Below are positions 1 to 4,318 of a stretch of 4,318 nucleotides of DNA, piece by piece. Below the pieces are notes generated by a model. It was not told where the DNA came from, did no database searches, and worked only from the letters and a program-made list of their open reading frames with translations. A program made the translations under genes and the position numbers. Every line of letters begins with the position of its first letter. Positions within the stretch are counted from its first letter, which is position 1. Origin of the DNA: a virus (lineage: Duplodnaviria; Heunggongvirae; Uroviricota; Caudoviricetes); IMG/VR virus record IMGVR_UViG_2698536395_000002. One strand, written 5' to 3'.

Positions 1-101
1 AATACATTGAGATTTTCTACAATCGTCAGCGTCGTCACTCTCGTCTGGGGAATATCTCCCCGGCAGCCTTCAGGGAAAAATATCATCAGATGGCTGCTTA
101 A
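1..101 (+). CDS. IS3-family transposase (OrfB-type), 3' end only; the 5' part lies outside the window
   Basis: Frame 3 is open from the window edge to TAA at 99-101 and translates to YIEIFYNRQRRHSRLGNISPAAFREKYHQMAA. The YNRQRRHS-LG-ISPAAF pattern is the conserved C-terminal signature of IS3-family DDE transposases (recollection; exact IS not identified). Confidence 0.7.
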   Translation, partial: YIEIFYNRQRRHSRLGNISPAAFREKYHQMAA

Positions 102-139
102 AAAAAGAACAAATGGTAGCGTCCGCTATTGCCAGTACA
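1..139 (+). mobile_element. Right end of an IS3-family insertion sequence, inserted into the phage int gene
   Basis: Transposase 3' end at 1-101, followed by about 38 bp ending in ...CCAGTACA at 139 (IS3-family ends are 5'-TG...CA-3'). Int homology on the opposite strand stops at this point (around codon 77). The exact terminus is inferred, +/- a few bp. Confidence 0.65.
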
Positions 140-370
140 CCTCAGAGTGATTGCGTCACCGCCTTTAATTCTGTCTATCAGTGATTTGCGTCCGCTGTCT
201 GAGAGTAACTCAATATTGGCCTGTATTGCTTCAGTGATTGCTATCCTCCTGTCTCGGCCTAATCCAAACTCTTTACCCGTCCTTGGGTCCCTGTAGCAGT
301 AATATCCATTGTTTCTTATATAAAGGTTAGGGGGTAAATCCCGGCGCTCATGACTTCGCCTTCTTCCCAT
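98..370 (-). pseudogene. int: Integrase truncated by IS insertion: N-terminal arm-binding domain of a lambda/HK022-type tyrosine integrase (about 77 native codons) fused to 13 IS-derived codons
   Basis: ORF begins MGRRRSHERRDLPPNLYIRNNGYYCYRDPRTGKEFGLGRDRRIAITEAIQANIEL, which matches the lambda Int N-terminus as recalled. The next stretch, LSDSGRKSLIDRIKGGDAITL, resembles HK022-type Int. Homology is then lost (RCTGNSGRYHLFFF*) where the reading frame enters the IS end. Full-length Int is about 356 aa; this ORF is 90 aa. The 5' end overlaps xis by 23 bp, as in lambda. Confidence 0.9.
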
Positions 371-566
371 TTCTGATCCTCTTCAAAAGGCTACCTGTTA
401 CTGGTCGATTTAAGTCAACCTTTACCGCTGATTCGTGGAACAGATACTCTCTGCCATCCTTAACCGGAGGAGGGAATATCCTGCATTCGCGCACCCATCG
501 ACGAACTGTTTCAAGGCTTCTTGGGCGTCGCTGGCGAGCGTTCCACTCCTGAAGTGTCAAGTACAT
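348..566 (-). CDS. xis: Excisionase Xis (72 aa), apparently intact
   Basis: Translation MYLTLQEWNARQRRPRSLETVRRWVRECRIFPPPVKDGREYLFHESAVKVDLNRPVTGSLLKRIRNGKKAKS is essentially the lambda Xis sequence as recalled. GGAG lies 8 nt upstream of the ATG; the 3' end overlaps the int start. Confidence 0.95.
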   Translation of the reverse strand: MYLTLQEWNARQRRPRSLETVRRWVRECRIFPPPVKDGREYLFHESAVKVDLNRPVTGSLLKRIRNGKKAKS

Positions 567-592
567 CGCAAAGTCTCCGCAATTACACGCAA
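555..592 (-). promoter_or_regulatory. pI-like promoter region with a cII-type activator box (TTGC-N6-TTGC) just upstream of and overlapping the xis start
   Basis: On the minus strand, TTGCGTGTAATTGC (plus 579-592) lies immediately 5' of the xis ATG. This matches the direct-repeat TTGC-N6-TTGC cII recognition motif known from lambda pI/pRE. Position relative to xis is as in lambda. Confidence 0.55.
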
Positions 593-615
593 TAAAAAAC
601 CGCCATCAGGCGGCT
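591..615 (-). terminator. Intrinsic (rho-independent) terminator for leftward transcription, overlapping the stop codon of the orf55-like gene
   Basis: Minus-strand RNA would read GCCGCC-UGAU-GGCGG followed by UUUUUUAUU. Stem is at plus 600-604 / 609-613, loop 605-608 (contains the TGA stop), T-tract at 592-599. Confidence 0.6.
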
Positions 616-773
616 TGGTGTTCTTTCAGTTCTTCAATTCGAATATTGGTTACGTCTGCATGTGCTATCTGCGCCCATATCATCCAGTGGTCATAGCAGT
701 CGTTGATGTCCTCTGCTTCGATAACTCTGTTGAATGGTTCTCCATTCAATTCACCTGTGACTCGGAAGTGCAT
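606..773 (-). CDS. Small hypothetical protein, 55 aa; homologue of the lambda orf between xis and ea8.5 (orf55-like)
   Basis: ATG at 771-773; protein MHFRVTGELNGEPFNRVIEAEDINDCYDHWMIWAQIAHADVTNIRIEELKEHQAA. The six-frame track extends it to a TTG at 788, but the ATG start matches the lambda orf as recalled. Stop TGA sits in the terminator loop. Confidence 0.75.
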   Translation of the reverse strand: MHFRVTGELNGEPFNRVIEAEDINDCYDHWMIWAQIAHADVTNIRIEELKEHQAA

Positions 774-808
774 TTGTGATTTCCCCAAAAGATGCTTGAG
801 TGCGCTTC

Positions 809-1108
809 TTATTCGATTCGCACACCTGGTATTTCGCCTTTTGAAATGGCTAAGTCATAAATTTGCGCAGCACTATACCCATCTCGCATCCATGAATCTA
901 AGGCGCGAATAGCCTCGCTACGCTTTTTATCTTCTCTTTCATTTTTGATATCAACGAGGACATCAACGCAATTAAGGCATATGTGGATTTTGTCCTTACA
1001 TTCGATCATGGCAGCTTTACCATGATTTCCGCCACACAGTGAGCATAAATCTTCAGGGTCTGGCTGGTATTTCTGTAACGTTAAAGGGTTGAATGTTGAA
1101 CAGGCCAT
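809..1108 (-). CDS. Hypothetical zinc-ribbon protein (about 99 aa) with CxxC-x11-C-x6-CxxC motif; function unknown
   Basis: ORF open from 1120; preferred start is the ATG at 1106-1108, preceded by GGAGATGATT (SD, 6-nt spacer). Cys pairs C22/C25 and C44/C47 plus C37/H42 (numbered from that start) suggest a treble-clef or zinc-ribbon fold. Stop TAA at 809-811. Confidence 0.7.
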   Translation of the reverse strand: MACSTFNPLTLQKYQPDPEDLCSLCGGNHGKAAMIECKDKIHICLNCVDVLVDIKNEREDKKRSEAIRALDSWMRDGYSAAQIYDLAISKGEIPGVRIE

Positions 1109-1120
1109 AATCATCTCCAT

Positions 1121-1145
1121 AAAACAAAACTCGCCGTAGCGAGTT
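1121..1145 (-). terminator. Putative intrinsic terminator (or antitermination-sensitive pause hairpin) in the leftward operon
   Basis: Minus-strand RNA: GAACUCGC-UACG-GCGAGUU followed by UUGUUUU. Stem plus 1128-1134 / 1139-1145, T-tract 1121-1127. It sits in a 120-bp non-coding gap downstream of the 92-aa gene. Confidence 0.5.
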
Positions 1146-1265
1146 CAGATAAAAGAAATCCCCGTCAGTGCGAGGATTGTTATTGTCTTTTCTTCGTGCA
1201 TTTGTCGCACTTTCGGCACCATCCAGATAGGCACATCCGTCCGCAATTAACACATATAGGCCACA

Positions 1266-1544
1266 TCATTTTTCCTCTTTTGGTTTATGAATCTGAATGG
1301 TCATGCCGCTTTGAGTGGTGACTACAATGACATAACCAGGCTGAAGACTGTTAAGATTGAATGCTTCGTAAAACGAATCCAAGGCCAGCGCTTTTTTATT
1401 CTTTCGGTTCCACCAACGCCATCCCTTGCTACAGGCTACACTGACAATCCACTGCCCACTCCTGTAAGCCATATAAAACCAGATGAGCAAAACCTGAAGG
1501 AATGCTATCCAGTCAATAATCGTATATTTCGCGAAGGAGTCCAT
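1266..1544 (-). CDS. Small predicted membrane protein (92 aa): one hydrophobic transmembrane-like segment followed by a basic Trp-rich patch
   Basis: ATG at 1542-1544 is preceded by AGGAGG (7-nt spacer) and overlaps the upstream TGA (TGATG). Hydrophobic stretch YTIIDWIAFLQVLLIWFYMAY, then KGWRWWNRKNKK. Stop TGA at 1266-1268. Confidence 0.7.
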   Translation of the reverse strand: MDSFAKYTIIDWIAFLQVLLIWFYMAYRSGQWIVSVACSKGWRWWNRKNKKALALDSFYEAFNLNSLQPGYVIVVTTQSGMTIQIHKPKEEK

Positions 1545-2131
1545 CACTTCACCTCCTGCTGCGGTGCTGCTGGCATTTCACGCCAGTGCGTAACTGAGTG
1601 CGGATCCGGATATTCGGTGCCATCATCCCAGCGATTGCCATTCCACATTGCAGACCACATCTCACCGTCTTCATACATGACCATTACCGGAATTAACTTA
1701 TCCGGCATTCGCTCACTACAGCATATCCAACCATCCGGAGTTACCGGAGAGTTGCCCGATAGCGCATTACGCAATCGCTCCAGCTTCACGTATTCCTGAA
1801 CCCTGTTTCCGTCGCATGCCTGAAGCCATTGCGCAGCCTTTTGCGCATCAGTGTGAAAGGCACAAGTGCGACCGTCATCAAATTGCATTTCGTAGAGGTC
1901 AGCAACTTGTTCAAACTGCGTATGTTGTGACTTGTAAGTTTGGCTTACAGGTTCGGCACCATGAAGCATGGCGGCGCGGAGTTTCTGTATCTCCCGTGCC
2001 ATTATTGCGGCCTGACGAGGAGTGAACATATCACCTGCAATAATTCTGTTTAGTTCCTCGTCAGTGAACTCATAATCATCAGGAACATTGTGAACCTCAG
2101 CATAAAGAGGCTTTTTTGTAGAAATGGTCAT
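1544..2131 (-). CDS. Phage protein with a C-terminal DUF551-like domain (195 aa)
   Basis: ATG at 2129-2131 overlaps the upstream stop (ATGA); GGAGG upstream. The C-terminus GWICCSERMPDKLIPVMVMYEDGEMWSAMWNGNRWDDGTEYPDPHSVTHWREMPAAP fits the DUF551 signature (W..P...V.V..........W.........THW.E.P, recollection). Confidence 0.8.
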   Translation of the reverse strand: MTISTKKPLYAEVHNVPDDYEFTDEELNRIIAGDMFTPRQAAIMAREIQKLRAAMLHGAEPVSQTYKSQHTQFEQVADLYEMQFDDGRTCAFHTDAQKAAQWLQACDGNRVQEYVKLERLRNALSGNSPVTPDGWICCSERMPDKLIPVMVMYEDGEMWSAMWNGNRWDDGTEYPDPHSVTHWREMPAAPQQEVK

Positions 2132-2745
2132 CGTAAAACATCCTCCGCACTTACCAGTCCGTTTCGCAAAAGATAATCCATCGCCCTATCAGGTAATTTG
2201 CAATCAGGTTTTGCTTTTTTCAGTTGGCTGACCAATTGTTTAACCAGCATTGTTAATTCGATCACCTGGTAGCGCGGCAATGGTGAATTATCGGATTTGC
2301 CCTGACTGTCATCACTGCATGAATGCCCTTCCAGCCAGGCCAATGCTTGTCGCATGAAATACGCAATATGTTTGCCGTGGTAATCGTCTTCATCGATGTG
2401 AAAAGCGATACTGCGGATGTATTCTATTGCATTTTCAATGGCCTCCAACGCTATCGGCGCTGGCGGTGCGGTATAAAACTTCGTCCCCAGCGGCAACAAC
2501 TTCATCGCTTTTTCTCCCTTAATGATGCGATAAGTTGATTTCCCGCCAAGGTCTACCGTTCCATCCATAACAAGGCCGAGTCGCTTCTCTGAAACCTCAC
2601 CAATAGGCTCTGCTTCCAGCGATGCCAGAGCAATTCGTGCCAGTTCTTCCGCTTCTTCTGCTGGCAGTACAACGTTGCTACCAGGTCCGTATGTTTCGCG
2701 CCACTGCTTGATTGTCAGTAGTCGCTCTTTGGTAATAGTGGTCAT
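2128..2745 (-). CDS. Hypothetical protein, 205 aa, no recognisable domain
   Basis: ATG at 2743-2745 preceded by AGAGGA (6-nt spacer) and lying 3 nt after the upstream TAA. The 3' end overlaps the next start by 4 bp. An acidic His-rich patch HIDEDDYHGKH is present. Confidence 0.75.
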   Translation of the reverse strand: MTTITKERLLTIKQWRETYGPGSNVVLPAEEAEELARIALASLEAEPIGEVSEKRLGLVMDGTVDLGGKSTYRIIKGEKAMKLLPLGTKFYTAPPAPIALEAIENAIEYIRSIAFHIDEDDYHGKHIAYFMRQALAWLEGHSCSDDSQGKSDNSPLPRYQVIELTMLVKQLVSQLKKAKPDCKLPDRAMDYLLRNGLVSAEDVLR

Positions 2746-2748
2746 GGG

Positions 2749-2937
2749 TTATCCTCTTAGCGCCACAACGCGCACTTCTGGGTCAAAAGATGGTGCATTC
2801 TCATCTGTAACATCAGCAACATGACCTACAAAGTCGTTATACTCACCCTCTGATTGGTCATAGCCCTGCCAGACCACGACAGCCTCAGGAGGCATTTTTC
2901 TGAGCTTGCTGATTAACTGCCTAACCGTCAGCGACAT
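2749..2937 (-). CDS. Small hypothetical protein, 62 aa
   Basis: ATG at 2935-2937 preceded by AAAGGAG and lying 1 nt after the Ea22-like TGA stop. Protein MSLTVRQLISKLRKMPPEAVVVWQGYDQSEGEYNDFVGHVADVTDENAPSFDPEVRVVALRG. The longer 103-aa version in the track would overlap the Ea22-like 3' end in another frame, so the shorter coupled start is preferred. Confidence 0.6.
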   Translation of the reverse strand: MSLTVRQLISKLRKMPPEAVVVWQGYDQSEGEYNDFVGHVADVTDENAPSFDPEVRVVALRG

Positions 2938-2938
2938 C

Positions 2939-3607
2939 TCACTCTCCTTTGATGCGAATGCCAGTAGCGCGGATAGATTTCCATTGTTTCCACATTCGGT
3001 TGAAGTCTGTGCCTGATAAGGTTGCGTTACGGTATCCAGTTTCGGTACGCAATCCTTCAAGCGTCGATTTGGAGATACAAATTGAATGCATTACCCATGA
3101 TTCAAACAAATCACGCTCCCGGGCTTCGCAACTTTGCTTACTCATCTCTTCGATACGTTCAGCCATCGCAGCACACTCTTCAAAGTTGCTTAATGCTTTT
3201 CGCTCCCATTCGGCGCATTGTTTTCCAAGCTCTGCAATCAGCTTGTCTTTGCCTTCCAGCTCAACACGCAGTTTCCCTACCGTTAGCGCAATATCCTCGT
3301 TCTCCTGATCGCGGCGTTTGATGTATTGCTGGTTTCTTTCCAGTTCATCCAGTAATGCCAGCACAGTAGCCGGATTGGCTGCGGCGATGAATTCAGCATT
3401 GGCCTGCTGTTCCATTTGGAAATCTTCATCGAAACCGCTTTCTGGATGTGCTCCTTCAATTCTGCAAATGGGAAGATATCCAACAACTTCACGATGAATT
3501 AACGCATCATCACAATCAAATCGGCTCTCTCCATATTCGAGCGACCATACACCACACGTTGCTTTTTCTGCCTTGGCACGCAGTGCCTGATAGTCAATCA
3601 GGCTCAC
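2939..3607 (-). CDS. ea22: Ea22-like protein (222 aa), a mosaic variant with a conserved coiled-coil core
   Basis: GTG start at 3605-3607 preceded by AAAGGAGG and overlapping the upstream TGA (GTGA). N-terminus MSLIDYQALRAKAEKA..., core LLDELERNQQYIKRRDQENEDIALTVGKLRVELE and C-terminal IRIKGE* all match lambda Ea22 as recalled (which also starts at GTG). The segments between are divergent. Confidence 0.85.
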   Translation of the reverse strand: MSLIDYQALRAKAEKATCGVWSLEYGESRFDCDDALIHREVVGYLPICRIEGAHPESGFDEDFQMEQQANAEFIAAANPATVLALLDELERNQQYIKRRDQENEDIALTVGKLRVELEGKDKLIAELGKQCAEWERKALSNFEECAAMAERIEEMSKQSCEARERDLFESWVMHSICISKSTLEGLRTETGYRNATLSGTDFNRMWKQWKSIRATGIRIKGE

Positions 3608-4191
3608 TGGTTGCCTCCTTTGCGAATCTGTTCCGCCCATTCTTCAAGGGATTTCTCCGCATATTCACCAGACAGGCCATCAATCGGATGCGGTTCATTA
3701 GCCAACTCTTCTTTCGCTGACAGAATCATGCGCGTAACATCGAAAACTTCACGTAAAGACTTATTGATAAATCCGTGGTTGAAAGCAGCAGCAAGACGGC
3801 TTGCGGCATAGTTAATACCCTCGTTGCGTGCTTCCGCACGTACTTCAGCCAGGAAAGCATCGGTGGCTGGGGTTTTGATTTCGTTAAGCGCATCACTGAA
3901 TAAACCACGCTCCATACCTAGCTCTGCTTCGTAATCGGCATCGAATGCAGCGTCTTTGCAGAACTTCTTCATCCCCGCACTCTCCGCTGCCAGCGCCGCG
4001 CACTTGGCCTCAAGGTTATCAATCGTGATTCCAGCAGAACGACACTCCCGCAACGCCGTTTCCAGTTTTGATTCAAGTTCACCGAACTTACGGACAAGAT
4101 ATTCAGCGTTTGTTTCGTTAACCTTTAGATCTCGTGGGATGCATTTACCTTTCAGAAAACCATCCATCTCAATTAGTGACATTTGTTTCAT
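3604..4191 (-). CDS. Hypothetical protein (about 195 aa), largely alpha-helical by composition, no recognisable domain
   Basis: ORF open to a GTG at 4209; preferred start is ATG at 4189-4191 (GGAG/GGGA upstream), giving MKQMSLIEMDGFLKGK.... Stop TGA at 3604-3606 overlaps the Ea22-like GTG start. Start codon choice is uncertain. Confidence 0.7.
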   Translation of the reverse strand: MKQMSLIEMDGFLKGKCIPRDLKVNETNAEYLVRKFGELESKLETALRECRSAGITIDNLEAKCAALAAESAGMKKFCKDAAFDADYEAELGMERGLFSDALNEIKTPATDAFLAEVRAEARNEGINYAASRLAAAFNHGFINKSLREVFDVTRMILSAKEELANEPHPIDGLSGEYAEKSLEEWAEQIRKGGNQ

Positions 4192-4257
4192 TTTTTCCCA
4201 CTCCGCCACATAGCATTCAGATATTTGTTGTCATTAACAGAACCGAAACTCTTTCTC

Positions 4258-4318
4258 TTAAGCAATTACTCTCTCGATGGCATTGGCTTTACGCGTTGGC
4301 GAATAATCATTTCTGCCG
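4258..4318 (-). CDS. Possible 3' end of a further upstream minus-strand gene (partial, about 19 codons)
   Basis: Open frame entering from the window edge and ending at TAA 4258-4260 (...GRNDYSPTRKANAIERVIA*). Too short to identify; supported only by context in a densely packed leftward operon. Confidence 0.3.
   Translation of the reverse strand, partial: GRNDYSPTRKANAIERVIA

Follow-up and report, generated by a model that had tools for sequence, protein, structure and literature searches.

The window, the whole stretch of 4,318 nucleotides of caudoviral DNA that was analysed (IMG/VR record IMGVR_UViG_2698536395_000002), begins inside an insertion sequence of the IS3 family and passes directly into the 5′ part of a lambda-type integrase gene (int), beyond which lie an intact excisionase gene (xis), a pair of cII boxes and a terminator-like hairpin, as listed in Table 1. 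The initial annotation, made from the sequence alone, had proposed that an IS3-family element cuts int just after its arm-binding domain while xis and the cII-box promoter remain untouched, and this central reading was upheld, with the element now named as IS600. No uninterrupted full-length int was found through this region, and the frame within positions 1-101 does match the IS600 transposase.

Table 1. Features of the window and their coordinates (strand: + as shown, - opposite,. not stranded)
Feature	Position	Strand	Remarks
IS600 right end, last 144 bp	1-144	+	IS3 family, full length 1,264 bp; window starts inside the element
Transposase OrfB/OrfAB, C-terminal 32 codons and stop	3-101	+	YIEIFYNRQRRHSRLGNISPAAFREKYHQMAA, then stop TAA at 99-101
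Right inverted repeat region	100-144	+	ends ...CA at 144; from comparison of left and right repeats
Chimeric ORF, 90 aa	98-370	-	ATG at 370; Int residues 1-76 plus 14 IS-encoded residues; TAA at 98-100
GAG, predicted 3-bp target-site duplication	145-147	.	partner copy would lie left of the IS
5′ fragment of lambda-type int	145-370	-	226 nt: codons 1-75 and first base of codon 76
xis, intact, 72 aa	348-566	-	overlaps int start by 23 nt, as in lambda
cII boxes, TTGC-N6-TTGC	579-592	-	TTGCGTGTAATTGC; just upstream of xis ATG
Intrinsic-terminator-like hairpin	590-616	-	AAGCCGCC TGAT GGCGGTTT and T-run; directly upstream of the cII boxes; identical in lambda

The IS600 end, the interrupted int and the xis region

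The first 144 bp of the window were identical at 143 of 144 positions (99.3%, E 6e-67) to annotated copies of 'IS3-like element IS600', thousands of which were found, and both the sequence identity and the ...CA-3′ terminal repeat end typical of the IS3 family place the segment in IS600. The frame at 3-101 matched Pfam rve_2 (E 9.9e-6, above the curated cut-off), which identifies the last 32 codons of a DDE (rve) transposase, annotated in the references as 'IS3-like element IS600 family transposase', and its translation bore out the stop codon that had been read at 99-101. The exact terminus was located with a reference set of eight IS600 copies from four STEC genomes, strain MBT-5 serving as the comparator with an intact int. 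All eight copies end in ...GCCAGTACACCTCA, which corresponds to position 144, and diverge right after it; the terminus at 139 (...CCAGTACA) given by the initial annotation is 5 bp short, so that aligning the left end of the window to IS references, as had been suggested, both named the element and moved its end. The left inverted repeat (TGAGGTAGCC...) and the orfA-orfB pair with its programmed -1 frameshift were seen in the reference copies only, being left of the window in this sequence. A perfect reverse complement of the right end, sought in order to place the left ends, was not found, and the left ends were placed by element length because the IS600 repeats are imperfect.

A single substitution distinguishes the IS600 piece: position 120 is C in the window and T in all reference copies, an A-to-G change on the strand that reads inward into the IS, and it falls inside the CGGACACT block common to the left and right repeats. 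Complete E. coli genomes yielded 6,118 IS600 right ends, none of them an exact match to 1-144 and the best at 99.3%. The change could be a sequencing error, or else a private mutation where the transposase is likely to bind the repeat. An outward hybrid promoter was also looked for; by eye, TTGCCA at 129-134 offers a possible -35 element with no -10 at the right spacing, and a sigma-70 scan of 1-800 returned nothing.

The int sequence resumes at 145 (GAGTGATTGCG), where the intact gene reads ...CACATGAAGAG TGATTGCG..., the intact target being ...CATGAAGAG joined to TGATTGCG; the BLAST match to int reaches 144 only because int, too, has an A in front of GAG. The int fragment is 100% identical to that of O26:H11 prophages with an intact int, and residues 1-76 of the chimeric ORF match those of the intact 357-aa Int of strain MBT-5 (O26) without a difference. 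One int base and two IS bases make up a hybrid codon 76, which reads CTG in place of the intact CTT and keeps leucine; after it, a 14-residue tail (RCTGNSGRYHLFFF) is read from the antisense strand of the IS600 end. The homology described as running from the ATG at 370 to about codon 77 was therefore correct at its start and ends one codon earlier, in this hybrid. It was also observed that the stop of the transposase (+) and that of the chimeric frame (-) overlap in a TTAA palindrome at 98-101; that the int-derived frame ends where the opposite-strand transposase frame ends is probably a coincidence.

The claim that the 90-aa ORF holds the whole N-terminal arm-binding domain was confirmed by Pfam Arm-DNA-bind_1 (PF09003), which covers residues 1-68 with profile positions 1-73 of 74 (E 1.1e-29), and by matches to lambda Int in the PDB. 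Residues 1-55 of the fragment are identical to lambda Int (PDB chains 1z1b/1kjk), and the fragment aligns with the lambda Int structures 1z1b, 1z1g and 5j0n over residues 1-77 and with the isolated N-domain 1kjk over 1-62; taken at the level of sequence, these PDB and Pfam matches settle its domain identity. The core-binding and catalytic domains with the active-site tyrosine, which mark a lambda-type integrase, are absent, as the Int sequence ends at residue 76 and the ORF at 90 aa, and since everything left of 145 is IS600, int is here a fragment and no functional member of its family. For lambda Int, arm-site binding is assigned to NTD(1-64), cooperativity in that binding requires NTD(1-70), the core-binding and catalytic functions reside in CTD(75-356), and separate NTD and CTD polypeptides, when mixed, restore no recombination (PMC9791396). 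Set against these limits, the retained Int residues 1-76 place the IS600 cut at the NTD/CTD boundary, with the whole arm-binding module kept and everything needed for catalysis outside the reading frame.

The xis product matched Pfam Exc (PF07825) over residues 1-72 (E 3.9e-41) as a full-length excisionase, and it is identical to WP_001303849.1 of intact O26 prophages and identical at 71 of 72 residues to lambda Xis. In a three-way alignment of the window, lambda and an intact O26 prophage, covering the terminator hairpin, the cII boxes, the xis start and the adjoining part of int, the window equals the intact prophage throughout, so that xis and the cII-box promoter had been rightly called unchanged. 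Few base differences separate the window from lambda in that stretch, none within TTGC-N6-TTGC, and from the terminator hairpin into xis the two are identical except for one base upstream of the cII-box motif. The TTGC-N6-TTGC repeats are placed relative to the xis start as in lambda, as expected of a pI-type promoter, and the reference prophage encodes a CII-family regulator (locus L007, 33169-33465); by analogy with lambda genetics, the motif at 579-592 would act as a cII-activated pI, with a transcript that would start inside xis. The hairpin at 597-616 has a terminator-like score on both strands. No plus-strand terminator-like site was predicted between the transposase stop and about 600-620, and read-through from IS600 would therefore run antisense to the int fragment and xis.

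Further into the window, a 103-aa ORF at 809-1120 (-), annotated as the hypothetical protein WP_001368678.1, has a cysteine-rich CSLCGG...C...CLNC segment that resembles a small zinc-binding motif. At 2939-3640 and 3604-4209 (-), two long overlapping ORFs of 233 aa and 201 aa were observed where RefSeq calls only about 3131-3607, as an 'ead/Ea22-like family protein, incomplete' pseudogene, and because of this disagreement the gene models around 2939-4209 look unsettled. An Rfam scan of the window found no family.

Source prophage, the junction and the left flank of IS600

Positions 144-4318 matched several complete O26:H11 genomes with an intact int, including strain H19, at 100% identity and in one piece; phage Stx1a_11KH263 likewise matched at 100% in one piece and phage H19J at 99.9%. 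IS600 is hence the sole difference from the intact prophage. In the matching O26:H11 genomes the region adjoins torS, int is whole and stx1a lies in the same prophage, and the source prophage is on these matches assigned to the lambda-like Stx1a-converting type at torS-torT in O26:H11 STEC. Stx1a phages at torS-torT of the O26:H11 ST21 lineage have been described, with IS600 insertions and IS-mediated deletions mentioned (PMC10042803). Some genomes matched the whole of 1-4318 in several pieces, which was first read as a further IS600 just past the right end of the window, that is, a contig bounded by repeats; this idea was dropped, as the annotation of those strains puts IS600 inside the region equivalent to the window.

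The junction itself was seen only in the window. A megablast against 5,426 complete E. coli genomes returned no single-piece match spanning the IS600-int junction, exact scans for the right junction found it absent from GTDB species representatives, JGI metagenomes and IMG/VR, and the assembly collection, queried for the exact 90-aa ORF, contained no gene with that product. As there are zero other differences over 4.2 kb and the junction was seen nowhere else, the sequence dates the insertion as very recent and private to the source strain. The same rarity, together with a window that starts inside a multicopy repeat as is typical of short-read contig ends, is what a misjoined contig would also give, in which case int would be whole in the organism; this is extremely improbable, since the break lies to the base at the canonical IS600 terminus ...CCTCA, where transposition would put it but a random chimera would not be expected to, the IS piece bears its own private substitution, and a junction between a repeat end and a unique flank needs spanning reads to assemble.

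IS600 insertions elsewhere in related prophages give the frame in which the junction can be read. An independent int::IS600 allele was found at about codon 244 in the prophage at the torS site of strain 10205, and another after codon 34 in the prophage at the ybhC site (lambda attB) of strain NIID080884; both are simple insertions with 3-bp duplications (AGC and CTC, respectively) and retain the int 3′ part across the IS. A 3-bp duplication accompanies six of the eight reference copies, and the other two join non-contiguous segments and are therefore deletion or rearrangement joints. With one to three IS600 copies in each of the fetched loci, IS600 is highly active in these prophages, and no target-site consensus was apparent when the reconstructed sites of seven insertions were compared. 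On this evidence, transposition of IS600 into codon 76 of the int of a Stx1a prophage, splitting the arm-binding domain from the core-binding and catalytic domains, is very probably what the window records. An IS600 copy would have moved in the copy-out/paste-in manner of the IS3 family into codon 76, and the 90-aa ORF (Int 1-76 and the 14-aa IS-encoded tail) would be an accidental by-product.

That the event was a simple insertion with duplication of GAG, the int 3′ part being kept left of the IS, is likely, if somewhat less assured than the transposition itself, given the two reference copies, out of eight, that mark deletion or rearrangement joints and show no duplication. The remaining 281 codons of int, attL and torS would then lie left of IS600, and the left junction is predicted to read ...CACATGAAGAG followed directly by TGAGGTAGCCTGAG... 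(int 3′ part, GAG, IS600 left end), a flank also given as ...CACACATGAAGAG followed by TGAGGTAGCCTGAGTT...; genome_contigs and metagenome_contigs, scanned for exact copies of this predicted junction, returned no match. The alternative that the junction is an IS600-mediated deletion, inversion or inter-IS recombination joint, so that the int 3′ part, attL and possibly host DNA have gone or moved and the remnant is permanently immobile, is unlikely, though it has precedents. The two reference copies without a 3-bp duplication join non-contiguous phage segments (the recombinase-NinF joint in loci L005, L008 and L009, and the ERF copy in L004), an IS-mediated 18-kb deletion is recorded in an O26 Stx1a phage (PMC10042803), and the window ends inside IS600 with the left side outside it. 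Against such a joint, simple insertion with the other gene half kept is the rule in the reference set, in six copies out of eight and in both int::IS600 alleles, and the sequence right of the junction is all collinear with and 100% identical to the intact prophage. Simple insertion is accordingly preferred, and the earlier statement that the catalytic Int domains have been lost goes further than a window ending inside the IS can show: the catalytic part has probably been separated and not deleted, given that both reference int::IS600 alleles retain the int 3′ part. Either way, this gene can give no functional Int.

The recombinase-IS600-ninF arrangement was observed as a joint in its own right, where an IS600 without target duplication (L005 10618-11881; L008 25915-27071; L009 27182-28338) connects a truncated recombinase gene directly to ninF. 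It was seen in several O26-like strains, in a P22-like prophage adjoining torI, and implies that the entire immunity and replication region was lost through an IS-mediated deletion. Moreover, all IS600 copies seen in these lambdoid prophages have one chromosomal orientation, at least ten distinct sites in five strains in addition to the window, the set comprising window 1-144; L001 1881-3144; L002 1881-3144 and 4332-5595; L004 4863-6126 and 10140-11403; L007 41120-42276; and L005 5843-7106, 9108-10371 and 10618-11881. The same orientation occurs in leftward early genes, antiparallel to them, and downstream of stxB in the rightward late operon, co-directional with it, so the bias does not follow the direction in which the phage genes are transcribed. 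The loci themselves all lie the same way round in the chromosome, with torS and ybhC on the minus strand of each. In K-12, torS and ybhC belong to the right replichore; if this holds for the present loci, the transposase gene would point the way the replication fork moves. A literature search on orientation bias found nothing specific to IS600.

Predicted consequences for excision and the Int fragment

Sequence and established domain requirements together indicate that this gene yields no active Int, the N-terminal arm-binding domain having been separated from the core-binding and catalytic domains. Prophages of lambda that are int-defective do not excise, and the present prophage should likewise fail to excise on induction; Xis alone would be unable to excise it, so the toxin prophage would be locked, barring loss of the IS or a compatible Int acting in trans. 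The earlier description of the prophage as fixed in the chromosome is plausible on that footing, conditional on the IS-excision enhancer IEE and on paralogous Int. Acting with transposase, IEE promotes the precise excision of elements of the IS3 family (bioRxiv 10.1101/2023.06.07.543989), and therefore a simple insertion could revert; IEE is common in O26:H11 strains, which make up 13.8% of the IEE-carrying genomes (PMC9943667). The catalytic region of int was detected by megablast at three places per O26 genome, i.e., in two further paralogues, the core-site specificity of which probably differs. The Stx1a prophage is most likely unable to excise, and the strain would keep stx1a and should release no transducing phage. 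For typing, the join of the IS600 end to int codon 76 can serve as a marker specific to the strain.

Synthesis of the 90-aa fragment is plausible when its promoters fire, on induction or under CII, because the start codon, the xis overlap, the pI-type promoter and the leftward operon are kept. Cognate arm sites exist, as the reference attL, where it aligns with lambda P′1-P′3, carries lambda-like P′ arm repeats (GGGTCATTAT, TAGTCAAAAT and AAAATCATTT); searching that attL for the lambda arm-site consensus, with up to one mismatch allowed, gave no hit, the aligned P′ repeats being more diverged. A truncated Int that is functional, occupying lambda-type arm sites with Xis and acting as a dominant-negative on integration and excision of co-resident or incoming lambdoid phages, would draw on these repeats, on the identity of residues 1-55 with lambda Int and the intact start codon, xis overlap and pI, on the ability of the isolated lambda Int NTD to fold and bind arm sites alone (PDB 1kjk; PMC9791396), and on the identical arm-binding domain shared by co-resident and incoming lambdoid phages. 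Such a function is nevertheless very unlikely: the allele occurs in a single sequence and gives no hint of having spread or been selected, the other IS600 insertions hit unrelated int codons (34 and about 244) as random knockouts would, the promoters are silent in a repressed lysogen, and the foreign hydrophobic 14-aa tail may destabilise the product. Slighter still is the chance that Int 1-76 with its tail, expressed with Xis, serves as a trans decoy on the arm sites of other lambdoid prophages and phages in polylysogenic STEC, a reading prompted by the identity of the first 55 residues with lambda Int; if true, it would be a naturally arising dominant-negative integrase fragment that alters the integration and excision of other lambdoid phages. 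There is no indication that the fragment is functional or selected.

Comparison with known systems

Knockout of a prophage integrase by an IS is an ordinary event of a kind already known, and this allele adds one more case to the documented IS600 erosion of O26:H11 prophages and raises no new question. Its modest interest lies in a break precisely at the NTD/CTD boundary with the expression signals intact, a natural version of a fragment so far studied in vitro only. On equivalent alleles, PGAP/RefSeq annotates an IS600 transposase and an incomplete 'phage integrase Arm DNA-binding domain-containing protein' pseudogene. The closest counterparts are the int::IS600 alleles of STEC 10205 and NIID080884, which share with the window the IS element and its orientation, an int of lambda type that is closely related, and the same xis downstream. 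They are cut at about codon 244 and codon 34, respectively, whereas the window is cut at codon 76 and only its allele ends right at the NTD/CTD boundary; they also display the left junction, the 3-bp duplication and the int 3′ part, while the window stops inside the IS.

The O26:H11 Stx1a prophages at torS-torT (H19J; G1-type Stx1a phages; LC744179) have the same int, xis and early-left genes as the window, but carry an intact 357-aa Int. The lambda Int NTD fragments (1-64 and 1-70; PDB 1KJK, 2WCC) have the same fold as the window fragment and are essentially the same in sequence; they bind arm sites independently and give no recombination without a covalently linked CTD (PMC9791396). The window fragment differs from them in that it is predicted from sequence, has a natural IS origin, reaches residue 76 and carries the 14-aa IS-encoded tail. 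Lastly, the inactivation of EHEC prophage genes by IS629/IS1203v, reversed by IEE, likewise involves an IS3-family element in a gene of a Stx prophage, with a different IS, IS600 being the element here, and a different target gene.
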